A stretch of DNA of 64,000 bases from an uncultured Christensenellaceae bacterium (GTDB lineage Bacteria; Bacillota; Clostridia; Christensenellales; UBA3700): NCBI GenBank assembly GCA_944381365.1, contig CALWKW010000002.1, positions 257,952 through 321,951 on the forward strand, in the 5' to 3' direction. The translations under genes were made by a program, and so were the position numbers. Positions 6,816-36,318 of the stretch are shown here, piece after piece. The notes beneath the pieces are model-generated. The model was given only the letters and a program-made list of their open reading frames with translations, was not told the DNA's origin and made no database searches. The stretch's first letter is position 1. Every line of letters begins with the position of its first letter.

Positions 6816-6906
6816 GGAGAAATACCCAAGAGGCCGAAGGGGCTCCCCTGCTAAGGGAGTAGTACGGGAAACCGTAGCGAGGGTTCAAATCCCTCTTTCT
6901 CCGCCA
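6816..6906 (+). tRNA. tRNA-Ser: tRNA-Ser, anticodon GCU, with encoded CCA
   Basis: Hand-folded cloverleaf. Acceptor GGAGAAA/TTTCTCC, anticodon stem CTCCC/GGGAG with loop CTGCTAA, 19-nt long variable arm, T-arm GAGGG-TTCAAAT-CCCTC, discriminator G plus CCA. Confidence 0.95.
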
Positions 6907-7047
6907 AACAGAGTTGCGTTTGAACCCGCGGCTCTGTTATTTTTGTATTAAGGGGGTTGCCGGCATCATAATCGATACCGAAGTTTATGTTCCTCAATTG
7001 TCAGACTTCTACTTGACGCAGAAAAGAGATGAACACGGCAACTATAC

Positions 7048-7075
7048 AAAATAGACGGCACAAACCGTCTATTTT
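7048..7075 (-). terminator. Terminator hairpin downstream of the HEPN-like gene
   Basis: AAAATAGACGG-CACAAA-CCGTCTATTTT immediately after the stop of 7080..7844 (minus strand). Confidence 0.65.
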
Positions 7076-7079
7076 ATGT

Positions 7080-7844
7080 TTATCCTACAACAAAATTATC
7101 AATAATTTTCTGTAAATTTTGTTTTAGTCTTAAAAGAGCCTCTAAACAATTTTTAATTTTATTATAAAGTTCATTGTTTTGAATTGCATGAGTAAAATTT
7201 ATTGTCAAATATTGTCCGTGATTTATTTCCATCCTATCGGTATAATTATCCAAACACGATTCGTTATGTATTTCGTCATTTCTAACCTTATTGATAAAAC
7301 GTACGGAACTATTTATCTTGTATCTTTCAGCCTCATCATAAAATTCCTTAACATGGTTGTTACTTCGAGCGCATTCTTTAAGCGCATTCATAAAATCGCT
7401 ATTTCTTTCAGTTTTTTTCGGATCTAAATTCAGAATACTTCTTACTAAACTTTTTACTTTTTCCACATACATAAAAATTTCACAGCATACGCATCTGGCC
7501 TCATATCTCTGCCACACATTTAACAGCAATTTATTTATTTCTTCGTCACTCTCACTCCATAGCTTACAATAATGAATATAACTATATAATGAGTTTCTCA
7601 AATAGAAGATCGAGTTGTTGAATTTCCTTACTTTTTCTCTTAAATCTTTATTTATCAAATCACAGCTATCTTCACATTCTATATCAGAAACAGAAATTAG
7701 TTCAGTCAATCCATTCTTGGCGCAAAATTTTTTTGTGTCAATAAACAGTGAGTTTACATCAAAATAATTGACCTTAGTTTCTTGCCTATCCTCATTACTT
7801 GGCAAAGATTGTGCCGAAAACATATCATTTTGCATCATTATCAC
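7080..7844 (-). CDS. Hypothetical protein with a C-terminal HEPN-like Rx4H motif (candidate abortive-infection RNase)
   Basis: 254 aa, very low GC. 'FINKVRNDEIHNES' fits the HEPN R-x4-H signature in a predicted all-helical context. Single gene at the element edge. Confidence 0.4.
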   Translation of the reverse strand: MIMMQNDMFSAQSLPSNEDRQETKVNYFDVNSLFIDTKKFCAKNGLTELISVSDIECEDSCDLINKDLREKVRKFNNSIFYLRNSLYSYIHYCKLWSESDEEINKLLLNVWQRYEARCVCCEIFMYVEKVKSLVRSILNLDPKKTERNSDFMNALKECARSNNHVKEFYDEAERYKINSSVRFINKVRNDEIHNESCLDNYTDRMEINHGQYLTINFTHAIQNNELYNKIKNCLEALLRLKQNLQKIIDNFVVG

Positions 7845-7938
7845 CTATAAAAAATATTAACATTAAAATTTTCTCCTGAATTCAATTCAAAATTTTTATA
7901 AATAGTATATCATAATTATTGTAAAACTCAAATCAACG

Positions 7939-8217
7939 CTCCAAATTTTGCCGTTTCGTTGCGGCTATCGTAGCACAGATTTCGCAGAAGTCAATGCGAA
8001 AAAATATCGCTTAAAAATCAAATATCTCTTAATTTAAAAGCCGGGAAGAAATTTCTTCTCGGCTTTTTCTTTTGCTTTGAAAATCTAACAACTCCAACTC
8101 AATATTTTTTCGTGGCCGTTTGACTTCTGGTTTCTTTACTTCCAATAAACAGACCTATGCTCAATCGGTGCTGCTCAGCTACTGCCGAAAGGCAAAATAA
8201 ATTTGGAGGTAAATCCT
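7939..8217 (+). repeat. Conserved non-coding leader, copy A (homologous to 33913..34189)
   Basis: The 78-nt block 7939-8016 differs at only 5 positions from 33913-33990. A conserved hairpin with T-run lies at 8040-8068 (GCCGGGAAGAA-ATTT-CTTCTCGGC-TTTTT). A conserved block lies before the RBS. Confidence 0.8.
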
Positions 8218-8481
8218 ATGGAAAACAAAGTTTCCCAAATTCCTGAATTCAAGAGATATTATCTCTCAGAATTCGAACTCTATGACGGTGAAGAATTCAT
8301 CACCTTCAACATCGTAGGAATCGATGCTGCCAAGAATGAAATCCGGATAGCCGTTACCAACAGAGGCAAAATAAGCGTTATCACTTACGACCTTCTGACG
8401 GATAAAAACGGCAGACTGTATTTCGAGTACGGCGCCATGTTTGAACACGTCCATCTGGACGACTTCGAGGAGGTGGCGTAA
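8218..8481 (+). CDS. Small conserved hypothetical protein (module A gene 1; paralog of 34190..34453)
   Basis: ATG 8218 sits 8 nt after GGAGG. 87 aa, about 70% identical by eye to the module B copy. Confidence 0.7.
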   Translation: MENKVSQIPEFKRYYLSEFELYDGEEFITFNIVGIDAAKNEIRIAVTNRGKISVITYDLLTDKNGRLYFEYGAMFEHVHLDDFEEVA

Positions 8482-8894
8482 TGAAGCTTACTCTTGCAAA
8501 CATCAAAGAACTGAAACGTAACTCAAGCAGTCCGCTTATTAAGCGGGTTTGCAACTACGTTATAGGCGAATGGAGCGACTATTCCGATAAGAAAAGCATC
8601 TTTACCGACGTGCTTTATCACGGCTGTCAATCCGGTATTGTCGGAGAACTTATCTACTACACAGACACCGTGCGCTTCTACAAACAGTACAAGGAAGAAA
8701 TCAACAGCCTTCTGTACGACGCAATGGACGGTACAGGACTTTACGCTCCTTCCGAGCTATTCGGCGACAAGTGGGACAAAGAAGATCCGCTGGCGCAGTA
8801 CGACTACAATCAAAACCTTCTGGCGTGGTTCGGTTTCGAAGAGACGCTTAGGAACATCGCTTACAAATTTGAATCATTAGAAAACTACATTTAA
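8481..8894 (+). CDS. Conserved hypothetical protein (module A gene 2; paralog of 34453..34866)
   Basis: 137 aa. TAATG overlap with the upstream gene. High by-eye identity to the module B copy ('GELIYYTDTVRFYKQYKEEINSLLYD', 'SELFGDKWDKEDPLAQ'). Confidence 0.7.
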   Translation: MKLTLANIKELKRNSSSPLIKRVCNYVIGEWSDYSDKKSIFTDVLYHGCQSGIVGELIYYTDTVRFYKQYKEEINSLLYDAMDGTGLYAPSELFGDKWDKEDPLAQYDYNQNLLAWFGFEETLRNIAYKFESLENYI

Positions 8895-8906
8895 GGAGAA
8901 AAGACT

Positions 8907-9317
8907 ATGAAAACGACAATTACCAAAAAAGAAAAAGCAATCGAAATCATGAAGAAAATGGATATCTACAAGCCTTATATAAACGGATTTGAGCAGAAAG
9001 ATAAAGTATGCTTCTTTGAACAATTCGGCGGCTTCTGGATCGACCAAGAGCCTGAACTTTACGAAAAGATGAAAGCCCTCGAAGAAAAGCACAAGTGCAA
9101 GGTTTACGCCGTTACGCACGAATACACGGAATTCGGAGAACTTTACGACTTCCTTATCGTAACCGACTATCCCGAAGAATGGGATACCCTCGTATACAGT
9201 CAGGGCAACCGTCATACGGCTTTTGCTTACGTCTGGAACAAAGACGACGACTGGTGTTCGGAATTCGGCAGCGTTACCGTACAAAGCTTCGGGGGCGGTA
9301 TCAGAAGAATTGCGTAA
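8907..9317 (+). CDS. Conserved hypothetical protein (module A gene 3; paralog of 34880..35290)
   Basis: 136 aa. Starts 'MKTTITKK.KAIE.MKK.DIYKPYI.GFE.KDKVCFFEQFGGFWI.QEPELY' in both copies. Confidence 0.7.
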   Translation: MKTTITKKEKAIEIMKKMDIYKPYINGFEQKDKVCFFEQFGGFWIDQEPELYEKMKALEEKHKCKVYAVTHEYTEFGELYDFLIVTDYPEEWDTLVYSQGNRHTAFAYVWNKDDDWCSEFGSVTVQSFGGGIRRIA

Positions 9318-9325
9318 GGTGAAAT

Positions 9326-9628
9326 ATGAAAATTTACTTAGTAGTATTTGAATGGTCTACCGAAGATGACTCGGACGTAGATATTGAAGCTTTTTACACC
9401 TATGAAAAAGCTGCTCTAAGGTTTCAAGAACGCATAAACGAGGAAAAGACGGATATGTCTTGGGTGCATGAAGCTTTCGATGAAAACGGCGATATTCTTG
9501 ACGGATATGATTTCGATGAATGCCAGCCCGATACGCGTTTAGAAACTTATGCATATTGGAACATCACGAACAAATATAACTGGCAGATGCACGATTACAT
9601 CGCCATCATACAGTTGGAGGTGAAATAA
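9326..9628 (+). CDS. Small acidic hypothetical protein (present only in module A)
   Basis: 100 aa, rich in D/E ('EWSTEDDSDVDIEAFY', 'DENGDILDGYDFDECQPD'). Tightly packed in the operon. No counterpart in module B. Confidence 0.55.
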   Translation: MKIYLVVFEWSTEDDSDVDIEAFYTYEKAALRFQERINEEKTDMSWVHEAFDENGDILDGYDFDECQPDTRLETYAYWNITNKYNWQMHDYIAIIQLEVK

Positions 9629-9820
9629 ATGAAACCCTATAAAACAACAGCTCATATCCATTCCCGGAACGGTGAAATGGACGAAATAACGATAATCGAT
9701 AAAATCGGAGATAACGACTACATCGTGGACTATAAGGGCGTGAAATGTCACGCCCTTTTTAATTGGTTCAACTGCACCTACTACGCAGACGACCTCTACG
9801 GGAGAATCAACAATGACTAA
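9629..9820 (+). CDS. Small hypothetical protein (module A only)
   Basis: 63 aa. TAAATG junction with the upstream gene. Confidence 0.45.
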   Translation: MKPYKTTAHIHSRNGEMDEITIIDKIGDNDYIVDYKGVKCHALFNWFNCTYYADDLYGRINND

Positions 9821-10028
9821 CATCCAAAAACTTGCCGCAGAAGGCAATAAAAATCATAGGATTTTCGCGGCAACGGTCGTAGACCTTATGAATTCGCAAG
9901 GATTTTACGGTCGGCTTTACCGCTCCATCAACGAAATGGACGACGACAGATACGAACAGTTTTTTGAACTGATCGGCGAGCAGAATTTCAAAGATTCGCT
10001 GGATGTCGTACTCTGGCTCGAATGTTAA
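9813..10028 (+). CDS. Small hypothetical protein (module A only)
   Basis: 71 aa. 8-nt overlap with the upstream ORF. Same strand and operon. Confidence 0.45.
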   Translation: MTNIQKLAAEGNKNHRIFAATVVDLMNSQGFYGRLYRSINEMDDDRYEQFFELIGEQNFKDSLDVVLWLEC

Positions 10029-10048
10029 ATTACAGGAGGTATAACACT

Positions 10049-10423
10049 ATGGCTAAATTAGCAGAACTCAAAAAGTATCTGAATTACGAATTTTCATCCG
10101 GCTGTTATACGGGCGAAGATTACAAATCCTTTCAGACCAAATATATCAACTACCTGAAAGCAATGTGCCGTGAAAATCACTGGCAGCTTGTAAACGTCGG
10201 AAAAAATCATTACTGCTTCTCCGCTTTTATCAAGAGTGCGGATAACAAATGCGTTTACATCTCTGTAAGCGACGTCAGGTATTTCAACAACGAATGGCAC
10301 GACCATATTCTCATTCGCACGGCGCAAAACGAAGTCGATTACAAAGGCGGTTTTAACCATTACACCACACTCGACGGGTTGGAAGGAAAAGCCGCCGAAC
10401 TGCTCGACGATATGCCGTTTTAA
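10049..10423 (+). CDS. Conserved hypothetical protein (module A; paralog of 35305..35679)
   Basis: Start at MAKLAELKKY (ATG 10049, after AGGAGG). 124 aa in both copies. Shared blocks 'YTGEDYK.FQTKYINYLKAMC..NHWQLVNVGKNHYCFSAFIKS'. Confidence 0.7.
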   Translation: MAKLAELKKYLNYEFSSGCYTGEDYKSFQTKYINYLKAMCRENHWQLVNVGKNHYCFSAFIKSADNKCVYISVSDVRYFNNEWHDHILIRTAQNEVDYKGGFNHYTTLDGLEGKAAELLDDMPF

Positions 10424-10434
10424 GGAGGCGCAAT

Positions 10435-10704
10435 ATGAAATCAATCATTGAAGAACTGTATTACGGAAATATCTATGCAAAAGACATTGTATTACCCGAA
10501 AAGAAACGCAAAAAAGAACTTGCGCTTTACGACAAACTGAAAGCAACTTTGTCAAAAGAAAGCGACGAACTCTTTGAAAAATTTATCGAGCTTATAGATG
10601 ATCATTACGACGAACTGATGCTAATGATTTACAAACGCGGCGTTTCTACGGGAATTATGATTGCTGCCGAAGCATTTATCGAAGGAGAAAAACTATGCGA
10701 TTGA
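10435..10704 (+). CDS. Small hypothetical protein (module A only)
   Basis: 89 aa. RBS AAGGAGG upstream. No counterpart in module B. Confidence 0.5.
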   Translation: MKSIIEELYYGNIYAKDIVLPEKKRKKELALYDKLKATLSKESDELFEKFIELIDDHYDELMLMIYKRGVSTGIMIAAEAFIEGEKLCD

Positions 10705-11693
10705 ATCTTGAAACCAAAACAAAAGAACAGGAACTCGTAAAGGCATACCTTGAAGAGAACGCAAGCGAAACTCTTGTAGAGAAAATCAACAACGGCACGC
10801 CTTTTGAAAAGGACGGAAAGCAACTTATCAACCGCAAAACGCTGGACGGCTTTATGCGATACGCCTGCGACGAAGCGAGAAAGCTCGCGGCAAAAGGCGC
10901 AAACTCCGCTTGCGTGGAAGAAAAAGTCGTGTACGGCTGGGCGGTGCATTACTTCGAGGAGGAGTCCATAGAAGGCACGCTCTTTAACGAAGACGGTACA
11001 GAGTATAATCCTGCTCCGAAACCGACGCCTGCTCAGGTCAGGAAAGTAGAAGCGAAAAAGCCGGAACAGCGTCAACCTACGCTCTTTGATTTTATGGAAC
11101 CGGAATCACCCGAACCCGAAGTCAACGATGAAAACGGCGACGATGAGGACGAACAGCCTTCACAAGAAGAAATCGACGAAATCCTTGCCGAAATTGCCGA
11201 AGAAGAAAAATCCGATGCGGAACCGGAAAAGCTCGTTTCACCGATCTGGCAAAAATATCAAGAACTTCAAAAGGAACACTCCGACCGTATTCTCTTGTAT
11301 CGCTTGGGCGATTTTTATGAAGTTTTCGGGGATAATGCCGTAACTCTTTCCGATGAACTCGGCTTAACCCTTACAGGCAGAGATGTAGGACTTGAAAGCC
11401 GTATTCCGATGATAGGTTTTCCTTATCACGCAGCGAACAACTATCTCCCAAAAATAACTCAAAAACACAAAATAGCCGTCGCCGAAACGCCCGACGACGT
11501 AAAGCTGCTCCCTGAACCCGAAGACGACTTCGATGAGCTGACGGAAGAAGAAATGCGGGAGTTTGACGGCGATATAGAAGAACCGAAAGACCTTGACGAC
11601 GAACCCGATAACGGTTTCGACACTTCCGCTTTCGATAAAAACGCTCTCTGCAAACTCGATGAGATCTTCGGCGATAAACTTACTTTGAGGTGA
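10695..11693 (+). CDS. PcfK-like/AcrIIA9-family-like N-terminal domain, an acidic linker, and a MutS-domain-I-like insert (fusion protein)
   Basis: N-terminal ~115 aa match the module B paralog and, from memory, the PcfK-like family. Residues ~185-265, 'SPIWQKYQELQKEHSDRILLYRLGDFYEVFGDNAVTLSDELGLTLTGR...IPMIGFPYHAANNYLPKI', resemble the MutS N-terminal mismatch-binding domain. Long D/E-rich stretches are present. Confidence 0.55.
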   Translation: MRLNLETKTKEQELVKAYLEENASETLVEKINNGTPFEKDGKQLINRKTLDGFMRYACDEARKLAAKGANSACVEEKVVYGWAVHYFEEESIEGTLFNEDGTEYNPAPKPTPAQVRKVEAKKPEQRQPTLFDFMEPESPEPEVNDENGDDEDEQPSQEEIDEILAEIAEEEKSDAEPEKLVSPIWQKYQELQKEHSDRILLYRLGDFYEVFGDNAVTLSDELGLTLTGRDVGLESRIPMIGFPYHAANNYLPKITQKHKIAVAETPDDVKLLPEPEDDFDELTEEEMREFDGDIEEPKDLDDEPDNGFDTSAFDKNALCKLDEIFGDKLTLR

Positions 11694-11697
11694 AATT

Positions 11698-13017
11698 ATG
11701 AAAGTTACAGTCATCAAACCCATTCCAAAATACATATTGGAGAGAATCCGAAAGACGGACAACAAAAACTATCCGAACCCTGACGGTCACGTTCGCTGTT
11801 ATGCCTATCTTACCACTTGGAAAAACGAACTTGTGAAGGTGACCGTTGCCGTAAAGCACCGTTATAAAAAATGGTACTGCAAACAGGTTGCCGTACATGG
11901 ACTGAACTCGGATAAGTGCTTCGTAAAGGATATGGAATACTGCTACTGCGCAAGCATGGGCTTTCGTTTCGGCTGGTACGAAGAAGGCTTGCAAAAATAC
12001 AAAAACTGGTACGAACGCGGTTGGTGCTGGGCGGACGATAAATATTACGATCCATACGCTACGCTTATCAATCCCGACTTTATAGACCGCTTGCCGGAAT
12101 TCAAATTCAGCGCATATAAACTGTATCAGGGCTGCGATATTTTCAAGTATTTACGGCTTTATCGGCAGTATCCCCAGATTGAAATGCTGATGAAACTCGG
12201 CTTTTCGAGAATTGCCATGAGCACCACCATTCTTAAACGCTGCGGAACGGATAAAGCCTTCTGCAAATGGCTCATTTCCAACAAAGCGTTGCTTCAAAAC
12301 AGACACTACTATATCGACGTCATAATCCGTGCATATAGGACGAAAAAACCGCTTGAACAGTTGCAATCATATAAGGAAGAGAAGCTCAGACTAATCCATG
12401 ACAGCAGTCTTACTCCCATTAAAGAACTGTTCAAAGGAAAAGACCTTGAACGGCTCTTCGACTATATGCTAAAACAACAGACCAACCCGAACACTTATCT
12501 CGACTATCTGAAAGCCTGCCAACATCTCGGTCTGGATATGACAGAAGAAAAGGACCGTTTTCCCCACGATTTCAAACGCTGGCACGATATCCGAATCGAC
12601 GAATACGCCACGAAAAAGGCTATGGAAGACGAAGAAAAACGCAAGGAACTGTATATTCAATTTGCCGCCGTTGCGGAAAAATACCTGTCTTTGCAACACG
12701 CAAAACGAAGCTCATTTATCTGCATTATCGCCCACAGCCCGGCAGATCTGATTCGAGAAGGCGAAATGTTGCATCACTGCGTCGGCAGAATGGGTTACGA
12801 CCAAAAATTTGTCCGCGAAGAAACGCTCATTTTCTTTATCCGCAACAAGCAGGAACCCGATACGCCGTTCGTTACAGTCGAATACTCCTTGAAAAACCGG
12901 AAAATCCTGCAATGCTACGGAGAACACGACCACAAACCGAGCGAAGACGTACTGCATTACGTCAACAAAGTATGGCTGCCTTACGCCAACAGAACACTCA
13001 AACAAATTGCCGCATAG
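11698..13017 (+). CDS. PcfJ-like protein (paralog of 36319..37641)
   Basis: 439 aa. C-terminal 'EGEMLHHCVGRMGYDQKFVREETLIFFIR...PFVTVEYSL' block, as I recall for the PcfJ-like domain of conjugative plasmids and ICEs. Confidence 0.6.
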   Translation: MKVTVIKPIPKYILERIRKTDNKNYPNPDGHVRCYAYLTTWKNELVKVTVAVKHRYKKWYCKQVAVHGLNSDKCFVKDMEYCYCASMGFRFGWYEEGLQKYKNWYERGWCWADDKYYDPYATLINPDFIDRLPEFKFSAYKLYQGCDIFKYLRLYRQYPQIEMLMKLGFSRIAMSTTILKRCGTDKAFCKWLISNKALLQNRHYYIDVIIRAYRTKKPLEQLQSYKEEKLRLIHDSSLTPIKELFKGKDLERLFDYMLKQQTNPNTYLDYLKACQHLGLDMTEEKDRFPHDFKRWHDIRIDEYATKKAMEDEEKRKELYIQFAAVAEKYLSLQHAKRSSFICIIAHSPADLIREGEMLHHCVGRMGYDQKFVREETLIFFIRNKQEPDTPFVTVEYSLKNRKILQCYGEHDHKPSEDVLHYVNKVWLPYANRTLKQIAA

Positions 13018-13030
13018 GAGGAATTAAACA

Positions 13031-13315
13031 ATGGCAAACTATTTCAGAATTACAGCTTATCACCCGACCGAAAATCTCTCGGTCATTATGGATTCAAACG
13101 GACTGTTTGAAAAACTCTGGCAATTTTCATCCTTTATGGTATCCAAAGGCTTCAAAATCATAGAAGTCGGAGGCGAAGACAAATTCGATGATGGAGATAT
13201 GCCGAAAGCAGAATACGATAACGTCCACGTTATTTTGCGTGCATGCAAAAGCGGTGAAGCGGAAATTACAGGAAACCGCATTACGGTGGAAGGTAAATCA
13301 TACACTACACTATAA
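13031..13315 (+). CDS. Small conserved hypothetical protein (paralog of 37657..37941)
   Basis: 94 aa. 'YFRITAYHPTEN.SVIMDS.G.FEKLWQFSS..VSKGFKII.VGGEDKFD.GDMPK' is shared between both copies. Confidence 0.65.
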   Translation: MANYFRITAYHPTENLSVIMDSNGLFEKLWQFSSFMVSKGFKIIEVGGEDKFDDGDMPKAEYDNVHVILRACKSGEAEITGNRITVEGKSYTTL

Positions 13316-13350: not shown

Positions 13351-14766
13351 TTAATCTCCTTTTATATCAAACAATTGTTTTAACCTTCTTGAATTACTAA
13401 GTACGACTTGCTTCAATTGAATTTGAGGCAAACCTGCTCTTTCAAAAATCATAAAATATATCATTTTTTGCAATATTAGAGTGTCCAACATTACTGTATG
13501 ATAATCAATATTATTCTTTAATAAATGCGCTATGTCATTACGAGCATCCGTTATTCTATTAGCTAAATTAGTCATATCATAGCCAGTATATTTGGTCCCA
13601 AAACTGCTGGAGATTTGTGCTTTTGTTTTATCTAAACATTTTAGCATTTTAGCAAATACAAATTTTAGACGTGACCTTAAAGAACTTAATATTTTATCGA
13701 CACGATCTTTTTCACTCTTAATTATAGCTTTTTCAAGTTCTGTTTCTCCATCTGAATAATGAATTACACGCTTATAAGCAACCTTATAATCTTGTTCTTT
13801 AACACAATAATCCTCAATTCCTGCTTTTAGATTTTCCCTATACTGATTTTCAAACATGCTTGCACACCGCAATATATCTAATGGTTCACAAGTATTTGAT
13901 TTAGAATAATACAATTCTTTCAAATCAAAATTATCTATCAAAAACATTTTCATTATATTAGAAAAAACAGATTTTATAGTATCAAAATTAAAAATACTTT
14001 CTGTTAAAATACTTTTGGTGTCTTGTATAAAAAAAATATTTTCTATCAAAAAATTATTATCATTCGCTAAGTTCACATAGTTAATAAAATTCCCAGCATC
14101 ACAAAGCAAAAATTCACAATATCTATTAACCGCATTTACAATTCTTACAACCAAATCATCACTTATACTTTTATTCGCTTCAAACACAAACCCGCCAACA
14201 ATTTCTTTAGGGAATTTTATTTCCATAGATTGTTGGTTATGATTAAAATGGATTGCTGTGGATTTATATACTTTAATATGTATTTCATCGATATCAAACT
14301 CAGCGCATACTTCATTATCAATAAATCCGTTAGTATTATAATCAAAGCTATTGGGGGCAAAAAAATGTTCTAATAAGCATGGAGAAAAAACCTCTACTTT
14401 GAATATTGGAGAATCATTTCTAATTTTGCTTATTATTGATTTGACATAAAAACAAATTTCATAGCCATTGGTATAGCCATATTCTAAAAACGCAGTAAAG
14501 CCTTGCGAAATATCAACTTCCGAATCAAAATGTCCATACTCATGATTTCTATATTCATCAAAGCAAATCCATTTCTTATTTAAAGCTCTTATAACAACTA
14601 CATTTATATCATATCGCGAAATAAATCTAAAACTTGCAACGCCATTGTGAAAATTGTAACTTAAACGATTTCCGTCAATAGTTATTTCGCCTCTCGCAAT
14701 AAAATTATTAATGCGCTGAGCATCATTAAGTAAAAACTCACGAGCTATTTTCATAAATTTCTCCAC
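13351..14766 (-). CDS. HEPN-domain protein, ApeA-like (candidate single-gene abortive-infection defence)
   Basis: 471 aa, low GC. C-terminal 'ITDARNDIAHLLKN' is an R-x4-H HEPN motif. A large uncharacterised N-terminal region gives an architecture like ApeA (N-terminal domain plus HEPN). Confidence 0.45.
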   Translation of the reverse strand: MEKFMKIAREFLLNDAQRINNFIARGEITIDGNRLSYNFHNGVASFRFISRYDINVVVIRALNKKWICFDEYRNHEYGHFDSEVDISQGFTAFLEYGYTNGYEICFYVKSIISKIRNDSPIFKVEVFSPCLLEHFFAPNSFDYNTNGFIDNEVCAEFDIDEIHIKVYKSTAIHFNHNQQSMEIKFPKEIVGGFVFEANKSISDDLVVRIVNAVNRYCEFLLCDAGNFINYVNLANDNNFLIENIFFIQDTKSILTESIFNFDTIKSVFSNIMKMFLIDNFDLKELYYSKSNTCEPLDILRCASMFENQYRENLKAGIEDYCVKEQDYKVAYKRVIHYSDGETELEKAIIKSEKDRVDKILSSLRSRLKFVFAKMLKCLDKTKAQISSSFGTKYTGYDMTNLANRITDARNDIAHLLKNNIDYHTVMLDTLILQKMIYFMIFERAGLPQIQLKQVVLSNSRRLKQLFDIKGD

Positions 14767-15315: not shown

Positions 15316-16183
15316 ACCCTAAATCCCTTGCCAAATCTGTCCATGAGTCATAATGTTTACCTCTAATGACTGCCGGTAGTGATTCATCATTTTCCATAGG
15401 ATGAATCGGTTTATGTTCTCTCCTTCTTATTGTTTTTTCCCAATAAAATTTATGCGTTTTGTTTTCGTCCAAATATTCTAAAAGTTCTTCCGAGTATTTT
15501 TCCAACGCGCGTTGTTTGTGAAGAATATTAAATCCTATTGGCATAAACTCATTAGCACATATTTTTACTTGGTGTTCTTTTTTCCAATAATAGGGTTTTC
15601 CTTGATTATACATTTTCAAATTTGAATCTCTAAAATTTGGATGTCCGAAATCTATAGTCTGCACCGGAATATCTAAGCTTTTTAGCATATTAGAGATGTC
15701 TATAACCATTTGCCAATTGCCTGGAATTTCAATGTAAACTCTATGGAATCCTTCTTGCCCATATGCCATATTACTACGTCGAATATAACCTGTCACATCA
15801 GCAATTCCGCGTAACAGCTCTTTTTTTTCGTCATTTGATAACGAGAACAATTCGCTATTCATTGTCATTGTAGAATGATGAACACCGTTTCCAATAAATC
15901 GCATAATTTCTCGCATCGTATAATCGGCATTTGGCTTGGTAAAAGATATTTGCGTAACTCTTTTCCCTTGAACAATAGGTAATGAGTGCCCAATCAATGG
16001 TTCAACAACGCACCGTATATCTGCTAAACTGCTTTTTACATATACGGAAACTTCACGCCCTTCATCGTCCCTTAAATTTTTATGAGGCAACTCTATCGTA
16101 ATTGTAGTTGTATCTTCTTTACGTTGCACCTCGCCGTTTCCTAAAATCATTCCAATTAAATATGCCATTTGCGCATTCATCAT
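15305..16183 (-). CDS. Double-motif LAGLIDADG-like protein with both catalytic acidic positions substituted (candidate DNA-recognition subunit)
   Basis: 292 aa. 'AYLIGMILGNGEV' aligns to LAGLIDADG with N at position 8. 'LLRGIADVTGYI' is a second motif with T at position 8. ATGA overlap with the C5-MTase gene. Confidence 0.4.
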   Translation of the reverse strand: MMNAQMAYLIGMILGNGEVQRKEDTTTITIELPHKNLRDDEGREVSVYVKSSLADIRCVVEPLIGHSLPIVQGKRVTQISFTKPNADYTMREIMRFIGNGVHHSTMTMNSELFSLSNDEKKELLRGIADVTGYIRRSNMAYGQEGFHRVYIEIPGNWQMVIDISNMLKSLDIPVQTIDFGHPNFRDSNLKMYNQGKPYYWKKEHQVKICANEFMPIGFNILHKQRALEKYSEELLEYLDENKTHKFYWEKTIRRREHKPIHPMENDESLPAVIRGKHYDSWTDLARDLGYGE

Positions 16184-17274
16184 TGTTCTCCTTGCTCGTC
16201 AACTGTATCATTATATATTTTATCAGCTATCGCCTTTGCCATCAATGGTGGAACAGCATTTCCTATTTGAGTACGCACTGCGACTTTTGTACCGTAAAAA
16301 ATATAGGTATCATCAAAAGATTGAATGCGTGCTGCCTCACGAGGAGTAATAGCGCGGTTCAATACCGGATGATTATTGGTTCCGTTAGAGGCCGCATCAA
16401 ATCTGGTATCTATCGTCGGAGAAGCTTCGTCCCATTTTAGGCGTCCCCAAGTTGAATGAAATTTTTGTTTGCCGAGAAGCTCTTCGGGTAAAAACTCTTT
16501 TCCTTTCTCAGGGGGGATCATCTGTAATTTTTGTATCGCAATTTGAGCATGATTGGAAGCCTTATGATTATATAGTTTTGCGCTATTTCTCCTCATCATT
16601 TTTTGATAATCAGTCGATGCTGGCAACCTATAATCTTGCTCAAAAGCTCCTTCTCCCGATTCCAAATATGCCAAATCACTTATTGCTTCACGAACAGTAA
16701 CAGTTTTACTGCAAGTCGGTAATGGCAAACATATTTTTTTATTCTTACAGCAAATGAAGATTGTTCTTTCTCTTGTTTGAGGAACGCCAAAATCACTTGC
16801 TTTTAATACGCCGACATCAACATTGTAACCGAGTTTATTTATTGCAGATATAATCTCTTCTTTAAACCAACCTTTAGATGTAGAAAGCAGAGTTTTAACA
16901 TTTTCAATAACAAAAACTTCCGGCTGTAACCTTTCTACCAATTTCAAATACTCAATGAAAAGAAAATTACGAGGATCCTTAAGTCCAAGTTTTTTTCCTT
17001 TCATAGAGTAACCCTGACACGGTGGCCCGCCAATTATCATATTGACTTTATATTTAAGAGATTGCTCTATTACTTCATTCTTCACTTCTTGCGTTTTAAT
17101 ATCGCCAACAATAACATGGACATCCGGCATATTCTTCTTAAGAGTAATAGCTAGTTTATCATTTATGTCTAAAGCGACAACTGTTTTGAAGTGGGGATTC
17201 AAATGCATCCCATAAGACATTCCACCTGCGCCACAAAACAAATCAAGTATTCTATAATTGACATCTATGTTCAT
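16180..17274 (-). CDS. DNA (cytosine-5)-methyltransferase
   Basis: Motif I 'DLFCGAGGMS', motif IV 'GGPPCQGYS', motif VI 'FVIENV', motif VIII 'QTRERTIFI', motif X 'QIGNAVPP'. Confidence 0.92.
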   Translation of the reverse strand: MNIDVNYRILDLFCGAGGMSYGMHLNPHFKTVVALDINDKLAITLKKNMPDVHVIVGDIKTQEVKNEVIEQSLKYKVNMIIGGPPCQGYSMKGKKLGLKDPRNFLFIEYLKLVERLQPEVFVIENVKTLLSTSKGWFKEEIISAINKLGYNVDVGVLKASDFGVPQTRERTIFICCKNKKICLPLPTCSKTVTVREAISDLAYLESGEGAFEQDYRLPASTDYQKMMRRNSAKLYNHKASNHAQIAIQKLQMIPPEKGKEFLPEELLGKQKFHSTWGRLKWDEASPTIDTRFDAASNGTNNHPVLNRAITPREAARIQSFDDTYIFYGTKVAVRTQIGNAVPPLMAKAIADKIYNDTVDEQGEQ

Positions 17275-18299
17275 TTAATCTTCTTCCTGATAAGTATTCT
17301 TTTGAAAATATCTTTTCCTTTGATTCTTGGCTTAAATAAGTCGAACTCATTATCGGAGCCATGATTTGCCTCACCAATTATTTCAAACTGAGAATCATTA
17401 TGATACTTTAGATAAGTAAGAGGAACTCCCATTATTCCCGTATAATCTGATGGAATTTCCAAAACTCTAGAAACATTTATAGCGTCAAAATCATCATACT
17501 TAGGATATTTTTCCGGATCGTACTTACAGGTTAAGACTAATTGCTGATGCTTACGTTCATTATCTAAATTGGTAAGCCACATTGCATTTCCTAAGCTACG
17601 CCATTTCTGCCCGGTTTCGTCGACCCAAAATCTATATTTTCTAGGTTGTGTATCATTCGGGACTTTAAAAGCCATATCGCCAAAACGGTAACCAATCCAA
17701 GCTTGCCCACTTTTAATGAAAGGAAAAATCTCTTTATAAGTTATAGCATTTTGATTGCCAATTAACAAGTATTGTTTCTTATATTTTACCAACAATGAGA
17801 ACAAGTCTATGAATTTAGAAAAAGGTGGATTTGTGACTACTATATCAGCCTCCTTAAGATATTCAACACATTCCTCACTTCTAAAATCGCCGTCACCTTT
17901 TAATTTCTTAACAACCTTTAATTTATTTATTAGATCTGTTATACTGTCACCATGAAGTAAGACTTCCTCAATATTAGGAAATTGTTCTACAACCATTACA
18001 TAAGCAGCATTATCTACTAGCGGAGAATAATTGTCATCTACTATAGTCGACTGAGCAACAATTCTTGATCCCTTATAAGAGGTACAAATTAATTTTTTTA
18101 GTTTCAGTGTATTAAAATTTTTCAAAAAATAGGTTGTAAAAGCAGATTTGTAAGGATCATCACAATTACATAAAACAACCTTTCCTTGAAATTGTTCAGA
18201 ATAATGAGAAATCTCCGACTCTACAGTTGCATAGTCGGTGTACCATTCGTCTGTGTTTTCAGTATATCTAGCTTTATTAAGTATAGAATTGTTTGCCAC
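17271..18299 (-). CDS. N6-adenine DNA methyltransferase, EcoRI-methylase-like family
   Basis: 'DEWYTDYATVE...GKVVLCNCDDP...GDFRSEE...ADIVVTNPPFSKF...LLIGNQNAITYKE...YPKYDDFDAINV' matches my recollection of the EcoRI_methylase family. NPPF catalytic motif. Confidence 0.75.
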   Translation of the reverse strand: MANNSILNKARYTENTDEWYTDYATVESEISHYSEQFQGKVVLCNCDDPYKSAFTTYFLKNFNTLKLKKLICTSYKGSRIVAQSTIVDDNYSPLVDNAAYVMVVEQFPNIEEVLLHGDSITDLINKLKVVKKLKGDGDFRSEECVEYLKEADIVVTNPPFSKFIDLFSLLVKYKKQYLLIGNQNAITYKEIFPFIKSGQAWIGYRFGDMAFKVPNDTQPRKYRFWVDETGQKWRSLGNAMWLTNLDNERKHQQLVLTCKYDPEKYPKYDDFDAINVSRVLEIPSDYTGIMGVPLTYLKYHNDSQFEIIGEANHGSDNEFDLFKPRIKGKDIFKRILIRKKIK

Positions 18300-18667: not shown

Positions 18668-18835
18668 CGCGGCGTGTGCTTGTCTTGATACGAGAGCGGC
18701 GTCGCTCCGCTCCGCCGCGACAAGCACACGCCACGTAAACTTAACTCGACTGAAATACGGAAAAGCGGAGTGCTGACGGAAGCGGAGTCGCCCGCTGAAC
18801 CGCTTGGGCGATCTTCCGCTTTCACCGTCACACAT
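18668..18835. other. GC-rich hairpin plus iteron-like region (candidate rolling-circle origin or nick site for the adjacent HUH protein)
   Basis: 14-bp perfect inverted repeat GGCGTGTGCTTGTC (18671-18684) / GACAAGCACACGCC (18719-18732) with a 34-nt GC-rich loop. Direct repeats ACGGAA(AA)GCGGAGT at 18757-18771 and 18776-18788, plus an inverted partial copy CTTCCGCTT at 18813-18821. Lies directly 3' of the Rep gene. Confidence 0.45.
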
Positions 18836-18870
18836 TTTCCGTTTTTTGACCGTATTTTACCATTCGAAGT

Positions 18871-19920
18871 TCAGTTACATTTGCGCATTTGCTCGATGAC
18901 GGCTTTACTCACTTTGCCCATATAGCAGCCTTCGTCCCAGCACGAGAAATCGTCAAAAAGAAGCAGTTTCTTATCTTCAAGACCTATCGGACAGACGACA
19001 TCTTCGTCCATAATGTCCGAGATAAAGAATTGCGGCAATCCCTTAGAATAGACCATCTTTTCGCCTGTTTTCTCCATGTACTTTGTAAGATAAGCTATTG
19101 CTTCACCCAACATAGAACGATCGTCTACCGTTTTGAAATCGGATCTACCGAACCGTTTATTGAAATACGAGTTCTGTATTGTTGTCTGTACCTTCTTTTT
19201 GATAGGAGAATAGTCCTTGACTTCAACGAGTTCGCCCGGCATCGAGCCTTCGGGGATATAGAACAACCCGTGGAAATGCAGACGCTGTTTTTCGGGAGAG
19301 CGTTCCCATACGCCGACATACTTCCAATCTTTACGGTGGCACATCATTTTGAAACAGCCTTGAAGCTTCTTTTTGAAACTTTCTTCCGTGTGCTTTTCGC
19401 CGTCGTAGGTAAACGTGCAGAAATAGTTAAACTCCTGCAAATTAACCTTGCGGGTAAGCCTTACACGCCGACAAACAAGATTGCGTAATTTACGTTCAAA
19501 TTGCTCATTCACATACATTACCGTGCTTTTTTCGTCCTTAAAATACGGGTTCATGTTGTGAATGATAAATTTCTTCCTATCACTTCTGGTCTTTCCTGCA
19601 GTGGATTTATATAATTCCTCAAACAATTCCTTTCTTGTCATTGTCCTTACCTTCGGCTGTGATTCGGATTGCGGTTCAGACTCAGACTCTGACGATTCAA
19701 TATTTTTCTCAAGTGCAATAGGCGCATCGTCATTCTCCGACGGTGCGCTTTTAGTTGCCTTGCTATTTTCTTCTGTTTCGGTGGGCGGTTCGGCTTCTTT
19801 TTCCGTTACAACGATTTCTTCTTCCGGCGGTTTTTCCCGCCGCCTTGACGGCCTTGTCGTGTGCGGTATTCCTATGTAATGACTGCCGTCAAAGTAGATT
19901 TTACATTCGCCGTATGGCAT
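18871..19920 (-). CDS. HUH-superfamily rolling-circle replication initiator or relaxase-like protein
   Basis: Start at MPYGECKIY (ATG 19920 after GGAGG). Motif 1 'FCTFTYD', HUH motif 'LHFHGLFYI', Tyr motif 'AIAYLTKYMEK'. Acidic/Ser-rich linker near the N-terminus. Confidence 0.7.
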   Translation of the reverse strand: MPYGECKIYFDGSHYIGIPHTTRPSRRREKPPEEEIVVTEKEAEPPTETEENSKATKSAPSENDDAPIALEKNIESSESESEPQSESQPKVRTMTRKELFEELYKSTAGKTRSDRKKFIIHNMNPYFKDEKSTVMYVNEQFERKLRNLVCRRVRLTRKVNLQEFNYFCTFTYDGEKHTEESFKKKLQGCFKMMCHRKDWKYVGVWERSPEKQRLHFHGLFYIPEGSMPGELVEVKDYSPIKKKVQTTIQNSYFNKRFGRSDFKTVDDRSMLGEAIAYLTKYMEKTGEKMVYSKGLPQFFISDIMDEDVVCPIGLEDKKLLLFDDFSCWDEGCYMGKVSKAVIEQMRKCN

Positions 19921-19952
19921 AGATACCTCCTTTACAGGAGTACCGACCATCT

Positions 19953-22079
19953 TTACGCAGAACCCGTTTCGTCGGTATCCCTGTACAATGAATTGATAAA
20001 ATAACTGTTCTGCATTTTGAGCTCGTCAACGCTCGCTTTTTCGGTTACGTATTCGAGATAATCGCCGAGTCCGATATTTGTTTTCTTCGCCATATCGTTG
20101 AAATAATCGCTGAAACAGTCCGTCGAAAAACGGCGGCTGTAAATCTTCTTATTCATCAGATAATACTTCTTGTTTTCCGGCTTTCCGTCCATCGTGCCGC
20201 GCTCTTTTTCTATCTTCAAAACCGAATAGCCGAATCTGTTGAATATCCTTACGTTCCTGCGCCATATCCACGACGTTACGCATTTCAGCAAATGCACAAG
20301 CAACGTATTGTCGCCCCTGCGGAAACGGAAATCGTAGTACATGGCAATGAACCGGTTGAACGTCCATTCGCTTATCATTTCTTCTATCGTGTAGAACGGC
20401 AGCGCAAGTCTTTGCTCTCCCGATTGCACGATATGGATTATGTCGCACAGATCTCTTGCGTCGGCGCCCCAGCTTTCGGGCCGCTGTTCGTCCGTAAAGA
20501 CTTTGATGAACGGGAAATTATCCACCGTTGCCGAGTGACGGCACATTTTGAGCCACGCATTGAACAAGTCGTTTTTCTGATTTGTTTCTTCCGTTCCCTT
20601 CTTGACCTCTTTGAGCTCCAGATTATTGCCGCGCTCTTTGCCTATCTCCGAAATCGCCACAACGCCGAATTCAAAGCTGCCTGCCTTCGGGTTATTTTCT
20701 ATGACCTTTTTTCCGAGCCTTAACACATCGAAATCGAGGATATGCGCGTGCCTGCCTTCGGTAATCCCTTCGGGAAAAAAATCGGACGCCCAGATGGGAA
20801 AATTGCCTTCGCTTACAAGCTCGTTATCCTCTCGAATAGAATAGTTCGCCACGATAAGGCTGCTTTCGATAACATAGATGAAGTACGCCTGAGCGTATGT
20901 TTCCAACACTTCGAACAGAGTACTTACTTTCAGTCCGTCGTTAAAGGTCTGACCGTAACGGCAAATATCGTAGCCGTATAATTGCAGGTCCGTTCTGCCA
21001 TTCCTAAGGTAGCGATTTTCTTTCAGCTTTACCCATTCCTTGACCGTTGCAAGATTGTACACGGTGCCGTGTTCCATACAAAGCCTCAGTTCGTCCTCAA
21101 AAGCTATCCACGGGAACATAGGGAATTTCATATCGTTGTTTTTCAGAATGTCGTATGCCTTTTGTCGGAACATAACTTCCTGCGAGAGAGTCATATCCGT
21201 AATGAGCGTTGTCTTTTTCTTTCCCATACTTCCGCAAGAGATAGACACGATGGGTACTTCGTTGATAAACCCGCAATTACGGGCTTCGAAATGCCGCAGT
21301 CTGTTCAGGGCGATTGACTTTCTCCAACGGTTGAAGATGAGCCACGCTATCGTTGCAATACTCCACCACGGGAAGTGTCGGAAGATGACCTGCAAGTCGA
21401 TAAGTAGCTTGCACACCTGCGTATATATAGACGCGACGTCGAAGGACGCCGAAAAGTAAAAGTAATAGGCAAAGAATCCTAATACGATACTTACGAGATT
21501 GAGATGGAACGCCCACAGTACGAGCCAGCATATCCACAGCCAATTCGTGTGTTTCAGAAAATCGATATAGCCGAGTACGAACCGTTTTACAGGCTGATAT
21601 GTAGCACGAGATACCGATTTGAACACTTTAAGAGGCAGCGTATCTTTGTTGTGCTTCGTGTTTCCGCTTGCATAGAGCCGTTTCAACGCAAAGACAAATA
21701 CGAGCACGCAAGGGAGCGCAATCGCAATCACATTTGCCGCAACCGCCGATTTATCTCCGACCACCGACCAATAGCCGATGAAATTTTCCTTGTCTACAAA
21801 GAGTTCAAAAAACCGTGCCGCCGAAACCTTGAACGTATCAAAGTCCGAAGGGAGCAAGATATCCCACTTCATAACTTCCGACCAAGCATTTACGGCGGGA
21901 GCGGTATTGTGTGCGATGCCGAAGATCTCCGCGAAGTAAAACTTGATTGAATCTATCAGGTTGCCGCCTGCCTCGAACGCTCTGAGATAAGAAGACGAAA
22001 AGACGAAGAAGCCGAGAAGGACAAAGCCTACCGACACGATTGCCGAAAATATGATATTGACTGTTTTTCGTCTGTTCAT
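19953..22079 (-). CDS. Polytopic membrane protein with a C-terminal Zot/pI-like P-loop NTPase region
   Basis: 708 aa. The first ~260 aa contain several hydrophobic helices. These are followed by a deviant Walker A 'SCGSMGKKKTT', 'FGVVAISEIGKE', and 'WLKMCRHSATVDNFPFIKVFTDEQRPESWGADAR', which by eye parallels Ff pI 'LLVLDECG...FLHARKLGWDIIFLVQD...KQAR'. Confidence 0.45.
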   Translation of the reverse strand: MNRRKTVNIIFSAIVSVGFVLLGFFVFSSSYLRAFEAGGNLIDSIKFYFAEIFGIAHNTAPAVNAWSEVMKWDILLPSDFDTFKVSAARFFELFVDKENFIGYWSVVGDKSAVAANVIAIALPCVLVFVFALKRLYASGNTKHNKDTLPLKVFKSVSRATYQPVKRFVLGYIDFLKHTNWLWICWLVLWAFHLNLVSIVLGFFAYYFYFSASFDVASIYTQVCKLLIDLQVIFRHFPWWSIATIAWLIFNRWRKSIALNRLRHFEARNCGFINEVPIVSISCGSMGKKKTTLITDMTLSQEVMFRQKAYDILKNNDMKFPMFPWIAFEDELRLCMEHGTVYNLATVKEWVKLKENRYLRNGRTDLQLYGYDICRYGQTFNDGLKVSTLFEVLETYAQAYFIYVIESSLIVANYSIREDNELVSEGNFPIWASDFFPEGITEGRHAHILDFDVLRLGKKVIENNPKAGSFEFGVVAISEIGKERGNNLELKEVKKGTEETNQKNDLFNAWLKMCRHSATVDNFPFIKVFTDEQRPESWGADARDLCDIIHIVQSGEQRLALPFYTIEEMISEWTFNRFIAMYYDFRFRRGDNTLLVHLLKCVTSWIWRRNVRIFNRFGYSVLKIEKERGTMDGKPENKKYYLMNKKIYSRRFSTDCFSDYFNDMAKKTNIGLGDYLEYVTEKASVDELKMQNSYFINSLYRDTDETGSA

Positions 22080-30016: not shown

Positions 30017-30625
30017 CTAAACAACGTCCTTGATAACCTTTATCACTATGCCTTGAATATCTATACTGTCGAAGAACATATCTTCCATTTTATCGTTTTC
30101 GGGATGCAGTCTTACTCTGTGTTTCTTCTTATCTAAATAAAAACGCTTTAACGTCGCTTCATCGTCAATCAAAGCAACGACAATTTGTCCTTCTTCGGCT
30201 GTATTCTGTTGCCTTACGATAACAAAATCCCCGTCCTCTATGTTTGCGTTAATCATACTGTCGCCGCAAGCGTGAAGAGCAAAGAACTTGCCGGGACCGA
30301 GTATCGAAGAAGAAATCGGGATATAACTCTCAATATTTTCTTCTGCGAGCATAGGGGTGCCGCAAGCAATGCTTCCTACTATCGGAACTCTCACGGTATC
30401 GGCTAATACCTTTGACATTTTTTTCGTTCTGATACCACGCCAACCTCCCGTTGTTTCAATCAACCCACGCTCTTTCATTGCTTGGAGATTGCGACTGACA
30501 TTACTTTTGTTTAACTTTATCGCGTCCGCTATCTCCTGCATTGTAGGCACTGTATTGTTGGCAAAGTAGTATTCGTCTATAAACTCAATAATCGAGTTAA
30601 AGACCGATTCGCTCATTACCTTCAT
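30017..30625 (-). CDS. LexA/CI-like repressor (winged-helix N-terminus plus S24 self-cleaving peptidase)
   Basis: 'MQEIADAIKLNKSNVSRNLQAMKERGLIE' HTH. S24 catalytic 'ACGDSM' (Ser) and 'EATLKRF' (Lys). Start chosen at ATG 30625. Confidence 0.8.
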   Translation of the reverse strand: MKVMSESVFNSIIEFIDEYYFANNTVPTMQEIADAIKLNKSNVSRNLQAMKERGLIETTGGWRGIRTKKMSKVLADTVRVPIVGSIACGTPMLAEENIESYIPISSSILGPGKFFALHACGDSMINANIEDGDFVIVRQQNTAEEGQIVVALIDDEATLKRFYLDKKKHRVRLHPENDKMEDMFFDSIDIQGIVIKVIKDVV

Positions 30626-30664
30626 AAAAAAATCCTGCTCTTTTGATTTATTACGCAATTTTTG

Positions 30665-30708
30665 TTGCGTTATGATTATATTTTAGCTATAATAGAATCG
30701 AAAGTCAA
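30665..30708. promoter_or_regulatory. Overlapping divergent promoter pair between the repressor and recombinase genes
   Basis: Minus strand: TTGACT (30708-30703), 17 nt, TAAAAT (30685-30680). Plus strand: TTGCGT (30665-30670), 17 nt, TATAAT (30688-30693). Palindrome TTTGCA-TTT-TGCAAA at 30871-30885 lies nearer the recombinase start. Confidence 0.45.
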
Positions 30709-30926
30709 GCCTTTTATCTGACAAATAGGTGAATTGACAAAAATTTTTTTGCTATTGCCTTTTGTCGGGAAGGTGTCTCCCTCAGCGAAAAAGCTCAAGG
30801 GGCAATGTTTATCCCTCGTTAAGCATAAAGCATTGCCTGTTTCCTTGACCTTTTTCTACTGAGGTAGAGTTTTGCATTTTGCAAAAGGCAACAGCTTGAA
30901 CAAAATCTCTTATAAAGGAGTTTAGT

Positions 30927-32465: not shown

Positions 32466-32467
32466 CG

Positions 32468-33900: not shown

Positions 33901-33912
33901 AATAAATAAGCT

Positions 33913-36313: not shown

Positions 36314-36318
36314 CTACT

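Follow-up and report, generated by a model that had tools for sequence, protein, structure and literature searches.

The window analyzed here, a 64,000-nucleotide stretch of DNA from an uncultured Christensenellaceae bacterium, contains two copies of a non-coding leader (positions 7939 to 8217, copy A, and 33913 to 34189, copy B), each located immediately upstream of an operon for PcfK- and PcfJ-like proteins. The leader folds as one long hairpin whose arms covary among homologous loci, and its minus strand carries a conserved sigma-A promoter motif that reads towards the base of the hairpin. Judging from the sequence, we favor the interpretation, with a probability of about 0.58, that the leader would act as a Frpo-like single-strand (hairpin) promoter of independent origin, which would insulate the operon when the DNA is in duplex form. 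Possibly, the same hairpin also primes synthesis of the complementary strand.

The two leaders belong to two paralogous modules (7930 to 13215 and 33904 to 37841) that share 72 to 79% nucleotide identity by blastn, the homology starting abruptly at positions 7930 and 33904. An earlier inspection of the letters by themselves (the sequence-only reading) had pointed out a 78-nucleotide block at the beginning of the leader (7939 to 8016 and 33913 to 33990) as better conserved than the genes behind it, and this was confirmed. Between the two copies the block shows 5 substitutions plus one 1-nucleotide indel near its end, with 72 of 78 positions identical in a global alignment (92 to 94% identity), whereas the three genes behind the leader are 75 to 79% identical, with values of 51 to 60% at third codon positions and of 84 to 93% at first and second positions. 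The probability of finding at least 72 matches in 78 positions is approximately 1e-10 if neutral identity is 60%, and 0.001 if the module average of 79% is used; given the former value, such conservation is very unlikely to be neutral. The selection on non-coding sequence proposed by the sequence-only reading is borne out. The other conserved parts that it described were also found, namely, a GCCGGGAAGAA/TTCTTCTCGGC hairpin followed by a T-run (8036 to 8067 in copy A and 34010 to 34039 in copy B) and a stretch ahead of the ribosome-binding site (8159 to 8217; 88% identical between the copies). The segment just before this stretch, 8133 to 8158, is 62% identical.

Folded as single-stranded DNA, each leader forms a single imperfect hairpin of about 280 nucleotides (z = -4.4 and -6.6). 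The 78-nucleotide block constitutes the distal arm, the terminator-like hairpin constitutes the tip, and positions 8100 to 8208 of copy A constitute the proximal arm; the base contains the Shine-Dalgarno sequence, whose GGAG pairs with CTCC at the first bases of the block. The tip of copy A (8036 to 8075) resembles an intrinsic terminator of the plus strand, with a 14-pair stem and a T-run, and its wobble pairs favor a plus-strand RNA; its counterpart in copy B (34010 to 34045) is likewise a terminator-like stem-loop with a T-run on the plus strand. The upper part of the copy A proximal arm (CAATATTTTTTCG...TTGACTTC, 8100 to 8132) pairs with positions 7984 to 8012, which include the -35 box of the promoter motif described below, and the lower part (8159 to 8217) pairs with 7939 to 7978. 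Both are separated by a bulge on the template arm (8133 to 8158), opposite the promoter spacer, which across loci is unaligned and variable, with a length of about 26 to 35 nucleotides. In copy B the proximal arm (34070 to 34189) was detected by nhmmer as a reverse-complement match to the block; the block profile also matched, on the opposite strand, the part of the leader close to the ribosome-binding site in the window and in many other loci.

This fold is strongly supported by comparison among homologues, for which a set of 28 diverse homologous leaders was aligned and a larger set of 122 distinct complete leaders was used in addition (119 of them for motif counts). When each leader was folded individually, the same long-range fold was obtained in 28 of 28 and in 115 of 122, respectively. 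In the 28 aligned leaders, a consensus structure of 68 pairs has 89.7% of its cells paired, compared to 40 to 46% when the partners are slid by one to three columns. Compensatory, two-sided changes occur at 28 pairs, versus 4 to 15 in the slid controls, and the covariation score is 0.172, versus no more than 0.055; none of 500 shuffles reached the observed pairing or covariation values. RNAalifold independently predicted the central helices, with 12 covarying pairs, and helices 6 to 8 are 92 to 93% paired, with 13 pairs showing compensatory changes. Where a variable position has both a local and a long-range partner available, it covaries with the latter, as in columns 257 and 126 (CG in 13 leaders and GC in 11) and columns 274 and 67 (TA in 16 and CG in 11). 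The ATTTCGC-N10-GCGAAA hairpin seen in the block by the sequence-only reading can form in both copies; in the homologues, however, those of its positions that vary do so together with the opposite arm of the leader, which breaks the local stem. Two local hairpins, ATTTCGC/GCGAAA and GCCG/CGGC, were therefore discarded as conserved units, since long-range covariation explains their variable positions. The functional unit is the whole leader hairpin of about 280 nucleotides, rather than the 78-nucleotide block; the suggestion of a functional element was right in that selection is real, but the block with its local hairpin is not the unit.

The promoter motif was found by a promoter scan on the minus strand of the block. 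In copy A it reads TTGACT (7994 to 7989), a spacer of 16 nucleotides, TGTGc (7977 to 7973) and TACGAT (7972 to 7967), and in copy B TTGACT (33968 to 33963), TGTGc (33951 to 33947) and TACGCT (33946 to 33941). The motif is highly conserved. The TTGACT -35 box is present in 27 of the 28 aligned leaders and in 101 of the 119 of the larger set; the spacer is 16 nucleotides long in 26 leaders and 17 in the other 2; the extended -10 TG is found in 28 of 28 and in 118 of 119, and the upstream TG of TGTG in 25 of 28. Positions T1, A2 and T6 of the -10 hexamer, those that are most important for sigma binding, are kept in 27 to 28 of the 28 leaders, while positions 3 to 5 vary. The sequence TAGCGT occurs in the leaders only as the complement of the -10 box, in a subset of them.

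The position of the motif within the fold is also conserved. The -35 box is fully paired in 104 of 119 folds, and in the consensus fold the first half of the -10 box (TAC) is paired and the second (GAT) lies unpaired in an internal loop, with at least one of hexamer positions 4 to 6 unpaired in 109 of 119. The A at position 2 is invariant despite a variable pairing partner, which indicates selection on the base and not on its pairing. Read 5' to 3', the minus strand comprises the complement of the start codon, the proximal arm, the tip and the distal arm with the promoter. The motif is thus on the 3' arm and reads towards the hairpin base, and therefore the paired 5' (proximal) arm would be the template and transcription would run into the operon; in duplex DNA, the same minus-strand promoter points away from it. 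Transcription is predicted to start about 7 nucleotides past the -10 box, opposite positions 8183 to 8185 in copy A and 34154 to 34156 in copy B, some 35 nucleotides before the ATG. This predicted start falls at the beginning of an invariant TGCCGAAAGGCAAAA (8183 to 8197 in copy A; in copy B, TGCCGAAAAGGCAAAA, 34154 to 34169), ahead of the Shine-Dalgarno sequence (GGAGG, 8205 to 8209, and 34177 to 34181, respectively), and its distance of about 35 nucleotides from the start codon is maintained in essentially all loci. No terminator follows it, and no conserved plus-strand promoter was found between the terminator at the tip and the ribosome-binding site. The proximal arm has a TTGACT of its own (34091 to 34096 in copy B), and a duplex promoter formed from it was ruled out by the absence of a conserved -10 box 16 to 18 nucleotides downstream.

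The leader is widespread, and conservation of the block extends far outside the window. Among 75 loci fetched through a protein, the block was found upstream of the homologous operon in 63, and a 21-base core pattern of the block matched 98 further metagenome DNA stretches. A DUF7222 relative is encoded at 69 genome loci, all of them in assemblies of uncultured bacteria; where a label was given, it was mostly Clostridia (in some cases Christensenellaceae). The same leader type stands ahead of at least three unrelated first genes, including an 89-amino-acid gene and a 219-amino-acid sigma/helix-turn-helix-like gene, and the leader is therefore a portable module. The latter gene, whose product has a helix-turn-helix resembling region 4 of sigma factors, is preceded in loci L012 (6745 to 5794, minus strand) and L169 by a divergent hairpin leader that comes after a serine recombinase gene. 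Decayed leaders were observed in six metagenome loci (L142, L147, L152, L172, L130 and L127), in which the distal arm persists, sometimes together with the terminator, while deletions or interruptions affect both the proximal arm and the first genes; in another locus, L158, an open reading frame for an IS200/IS605-type TnpA directly follows the leader. Searches of the leader by blastn in plasmid and phage collections and a pattern scan of viral contigs gave no match. Rfam models applied to the whole window returned only a tRNA at the gathering threshold, and in a permissive search no match in the leader came near the gathering score of its family.

The strand that would become single stranded is suggested by the gene context. 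After the operon, the opposite strand carries variable methylase or restriction genes followed by a gene for a rolling-circle Rep-like protein, an arrangement found in the window and in independent contigs. In the window, the Rep gene occupies 18871 to 19950 on the minus strand (Pfam REP_ORF2-G2P, E-value of 1e-11), and all open reading frames taken as genes between 13351 and 30658 share its orientation; in other loci, Rep is encoded 4 to 11 kb downstream of the leader on the opposite strand, and all but one of 21 leader-Rep pairs have Rep and operon in antiparallel orientation. Since Rep is encoded, the element should have a single-stranded stage. For phages with single-stranded DNA, as for most rolling-circle plasmids, the rule is that the strand nicked by Rep is the one with the sense of its own gene. 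If applied here, this rule would make the displaced strand the template of the operon, that is, the minus strand with the promoter motif.

A sequence of events can be proposed on this basis. After nicking by Rep and displacement, or upon transfer into a new cell, the minus strand, which is both the operon template and the Rep sense strand, would be single stranded, and the leader would fold. Its stem would restore a sigma-A promoter in duplex form, supplied by the distal arm (TTGACT, 16 nucleotides, TGTGc and TAcgaT), with the -35 box and the TG paired and the downstream half of the -10 box already melted in the internal loop. With the proximal arm as its template, RNA polymerase would then transcribe towards the base, starting just upstream of the ribosome-binding site, so that sense mRNA of the PcfK/PcfJ operon would be made before a complementary strand exists; the RNA started at the hairpin could double as a primer for synthesis of that strand. 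In duplex form, the leader would instead behave as an insulator, with its promoter facing outward, the plus-strand terminator at the tip stopping read-in, and no conserved duplex promoter beyond the terminator, while pairing between the block and the Shine-Dalgarno sequence would add to the insulation in any RNA that reads through. We see roughly even chances for the broader proposition that this is the first Gram-positive family of single-strand promoters, unrelated in sequence to Frpo, which would have the PcfK/PcfJ operon expressed only on entry or replication and act as terminator and insulator in the duplex.

Several observations weigh against this interpretation. The difference between strands is weak: G-T cells number 82 on the minus strand and 46 on the plus strand among the 28 leaders, the lower stem favoring the minus strand and the terminator tip the plus strand, and the minus strand has an average advantage in stability of only 1.7 kcal/mol (it is the more stable one in 21 of 28), while in the two copies of the window it is the plus strand that folds slightly better. 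Since these asymmetries are not decisive, the assignment of the strand rests on promoter orientation and context. As to the latter, that the minus strand becomes single stranded is an inference, and no nick site, relaxase specificity or type IV secretion genes were identified. In the F plasmid it is the template strand of the relaxase gene that is transferred, a geometry that predicts the opposite strand here, and the argument thus relies on the rolling-circle convention. Furthermore, the motif is a good outward-facing promoter as duplex DNA, which in copy A points at a HEPN gene (7080 to 7844), and its conservation could therefore have a duplex explanation. The variable bulge opposite the promoter spacer might disturb binding of the polymerase, and copy A, though not copy B, has a weak plus-strand promoter match (TTGAAA-18-AATATT, 8077 to 8106). 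Finally, the leader has no sequence similarity to the Frpo/ssi elements compared (ColIb-P9 Frpo1 and Frpo2, of three listed; F ssiD and ssiE; and one Frpo' candidate of PMC11541004): blastn returned only chance words of 8 to 10 nucleotides and nhmmer no match.

Among the other explanations, the hairpin could be mainly a single-strand origin, at which RNA polymerase would make a short primer on the strand displaced by Rep, as in ssoA-type origins or the minus origin of filamentous phages, expression of the operon being incidental. An element with an inovirus gpII-type rolling-circle Rep needs such an origin, known origins are folded promoters used by the host RNA polymerase (PMC4595007), and the evidence on the hairpin and the promoter fits equally well. 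However, an origin requires neither a Shine-Dalgarno sequence, which is always in the base of this hairpin, nor a start some 35 nucleotides before a start codon, nothing terminates the RNA after the predicted start, and a separate, more structured GC-rich region beside Rep (18668 to 18846) is an alternative candidate; as the principal function, an origin thus seems unlikely, although both functions are compatible and not mutually exclusive. We also doubt, to a comparable extent, that the hairpin works in plus-strand RNA as a cis-acting insulator, in which the terminator and the pairing of block and Shine-Dalgarno sequence silence read-through, the minus-strand motif being an unrelated outward duplex promoter for a neighboring cargo gene or one that collides with read-in. 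The two strands fold about equally well, CUCC at the block start can pair with GGAG in the Shine-Dalgarno sequence, the tip makes a good terminator, pLS20 EGeRS1 blocks read-through (PMC8708921), terminator insulators at element ends are known from Tn916 (PMC11658703), and in copy A the outward promoter does face the HEPN gene. On the other hand, the terminator lies between the arms, so that most transcripts would lack the proximal arm; on the plus strand, A-C mismatches (82) outnumber G-U cells (46), whereas structured RNAs usually show the opposite; and what lies to the left of the outward promoter differs by locus, being a tRNA flank in some, the 3' end of the recombinase gene in others, and cargo genes of either orientation in still others. 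There is, besides, no conserved plus-strand promoter upstream of the block, and the operon would be left without any promoter.

The two remaining proposals fit the data much less well. It is quite improbable that the block serves for recognition by a DNA-processing protein, either as an attachment-site arm of the serine recombinase or as an oriT (origin of transfer). The leader does lie at the extreme end of the element, 0 to 85 nucleotides from the boundary, or directly after the recombinase gene, and the first 25 or so nucleotides of the block could overlap an attachment-site arm; but serine-recombinase sites span about 50 bp and cannot account for covariation over 280 nucleotides or for a promoter motif 28 to 55 nucleotides inside the block, the element boundary is about 85 nucleotides outside the hairpin in loci L070 to L072, and no relaxase gene is adjacent. 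An oriT had been among the candidates of the sequence-only reading, and a better candidate region for a nick or origin adjoins the Rep gene. The same reading had suggested a small RNA ending at the terminator, and a small RNA gene of about 130 nucleotides made of block and terminator is the explanation to which we give least credit. A terminator does follow the block, and copy A has a plus-strand promoter-like match just upstream (7886 to 7913), but this match is missing from copy B and from the conserved region, homology starting exactly at the block; moreover, no Rfam family was matched and the block covaries with sequence past the terminator. The comparative evidence favors the first-listed candidate of that reading, a single-strand promoter of the Frpo/ssi kind.

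A hairpin promoter is best compared with the Frpo/ssi promoters, which have been described as hairpin promoters that are inactive as duplex (PMC9849209, PMC12672017). Like those of IncF and IncI1 plasmids (F Frpo1 and Frpo2, ColIb-P9 ssi1 to ssi3, and pESBL classes 1 to 3), which are large intergenic stem-loops of about 300 nucleotides directly upstream of an operon, the leader has a stem that rebuilds -35 and -10 boxes at promoter spacing, its folded strand would be the template of the downstream genes, and related copies stand ahead of different operons with small establishment-type proteins. Silence of the duplex is predicted for the leader and has been shown for Frpo (PMC9849209, PMC12672017, PMC11541004). 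Further marks of the Frpo/ssi class are a stem-loop size of about 200 to 350 nucleotides, a folded strand that is the transferred one, a place in the leading region beside oriT, and early, transient expression in the recipient. Unlike Frpo/ssi, which are GC-rich and carried by conjugative plasmids with a known oriT, the leader is AT-rich (about 36% GC), it occurs in Clostridia with a Gram-positive TRTG-type extended -10, and it is carried by an integrative element that encodes a rolling-circle Rep along with a serine recombinase; its tip doubles as a plus-strand terminator, and its activity is a prediction. In a survey of 21,907 elements Frpo were found by similarity to enterobacterial sequences, and none was present in its Streptococcus example (PMC11541004). 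In the searchable literature, single-strand promoters were demonstrated only for IncF and IncI plasmids of enterobacteria, and no report of a gene-directed one in a Gram-positive element was found.

Other structures are similar in part as well. Gram-positive rolling-circle plasmids and ICEBs1 have single-strand origins, some of which act as hairpin promoters at which RNA polymerase makes the primer (PMC4595007). Like ssoA, ssoT, ICEBs1 sso1 and the minus origin of filamentous phages, which the host RNA polymerase recognizes as a promoter (PMC4595007), the leader may be a strand-specific folded DNA on an element that, having a rolling-circle Rep, would replicate in this way. Origins of the ssoA/ssoT type give a short primer, have conserved RSB and CS-6 motifs in the ssoA-like case, and are not joined to a ribosome-binding site, while the leader has its predicted start about 35 nucleotides before a start codon, with no terminator after it. 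The EGeRS1 sequences of pLS20 are structured, multicopy leaders that have no duplex promoter and block read-through, and for which the authors judged a single-strand promoter unlikely (PMC8708921). They resemble our leader in being conserved, structured, multicopy Gram-positive leaders that end at a ribosome-binding site and offer no duplex promoter for the genes; they precede establishment operons and stop upstream read-through. They are, however, 420 to 750 bp long, GC-rich and multibranched, versus a single hairpin of 280 nucleotides and about 36% GC with an explicit sigma-A motif here, and their authors reported no promoter in the fold and a transferred strand that is the non-template strand (PMC8708921). 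By blastn, the leader had no match in the plasmid collection. As for the Tn916 end insulator (PMC11658703), the resemblance is that an intrinsic terminator near the element end would stop read-in from the host; in the leader, unlike there, the terminator forms no more than the tip of a larger hairpin, which covaries and also carries a promoter motif.

The operon behind copy A (8218 to 13315, plus strand) comprises, according to Pfam, an 87-amino-acid gene, DUF7222, small genes, DUF6809, PcfK fused to MutS domain I, PcfJ and a 94-amino-acid gene, and that behind copy B (34190 to 37941, plus strand) comprises an 87-amino-acid gene, DUF7222, other genes, PcfK, PcfJ and a 94-amino-acid gene. The DUF6809 gene is present only in the copy A operon, and the MutS domain I (E-value of 6e-21), fused to the PcfK-like protein encoded at 10695 to 11693, is absent from the copy B paralogue (35648 to 36313). 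This fusion recurs in other contigs. The gene order is the same in other contigs, as read from those found through a DUF7222 homologue, and the ribosome-binding sites are strong (GGAGG), which points to Firmicutes. A PHROG scan of the operon proteins returned only families of no assigned function. PcfJ homologues are located in ssb/radC arrays of enterococcal plasmids, and a PcfJ-like family is included in a supplementary table of leading-region gene families (PMC11541004).

As for the limits of the element, loci whose flanks differ place the boundary 0 to 85 nucleotides from the start of the leader; in L070 to L072, three contigs that are not flanked alike, it lies about 85 nucleotides outside the hairpin. 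The leader abuts a tRNA-Ser flank in some loci and the 3' end of a serine recombinase gene in others. In the window, the tRNA-Ser (GCT) gene is at 6816 to 6906 on the plus strand, and its 3' flank (6878 to 7085) is the probable integration site, because it directly abuts the leader in several related loci. The large serine recombinase gene identified by Pfam (30927 to 32465, plus strand), whose 3' end abuts the leader in several other loci, is separated from the copy B leader by one cargo gene, and window positions 32456 to 32554 lie directly upstream of the leader in L063, L028, L030 and L031. This gene is oriented like the hairpin-led operons. No direct repeats or attachment sites were found around the tRNA-Ser and recombinase genes, nor any repeat of the tRNA-Ser flank elsewhere in the window. 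The IME_Rho_tet family (PMC12904643) was ruled out as the element family on account of its different architecture.

The window proteins gave no Pfam or NCBIfam match to type IV secretion or coupling-protein genes and no informative PHROG match, no oriT or relaxase nick site was identified in the window, and no relaxase gene is adjacent to the leader; the element may be mobilizable or move in another way, and the name leading-region-like, which the sequence-only reading gave to the operon, is accordingly tentative. Immediately 3' of the Rep stop codon, two GC-rich hairpins (arms 18668 to 18684 with 18719 to 18735, and 18753 to 18764 with 18835 to 18846) form the most structured 300-nucleotide stretch between 5.5 and 39 kb (GC-corrected z of about -5) and are candidates for a nick site, a double-strand origin or a single-strand origin. 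Another very stable hairpin (30640 to 30940; z = -6.9), in whose stem no clear promoter motif was found, lies between a gene for a LexA-like repressor (30017 to 30658, minus strand) and the serine recombinase gene. The gene directly upstream of Rep (19953 to 22079, minus strand) encodes a 708-amino-acid protein that is hydrophobic in its N-terminal third and has two motifs, a Walker A (GSMGKKKTT) and a VFTDE; it has no Pfam, Protein Data Bank or PHROG match but over 2,600 homologues, and its AlphaFold model was unusable (predicted local distance difference test score of 36). It may be a divergent membrane ATPase of a transfer or packaging machinery. No relatives of solved structure were found for Rep, for this protein or for a 671-amino-acid protein.

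Operon A is flanked by two HEPN-domain genes (Cthe2314-like and Apea-like), both on the minus strand, at 7080 to 7844 and at 13351 to 14766. The former is situated directly downstream of the outward duplex promoter, with the tRNA-Ser flank on one side and the leader on the other, and related elements have at that place either nothing or another cargo gene. Between the operon and Rep, adjacent genes for a C5-cytosine and an EcoRI-type adenine methyltransferase (16180 to 18299, minus strand) have no recognizable endonuclease with them, and in other elements of the family the methylase or restriction cargo found here is a different one.

Single-strand promoters are the means by which conjugative plasmids express anti-defense and establishment genes before the incoming DNA becomes double stranded. 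The leader family is widespread, has covariation in its support, carries an explicit sigma-A motif and occurs in integrative elements of gut Clostridia; it offers a directly testable case for this strategy in Firmicutes. It would be a compact part, silent as duplex and active only as single-stranded DNA, and it provides a signature of sequence and structure with which genes expressed on entry, as such candidate anti-defense genes, may be sought in uncultured gut bacteria.

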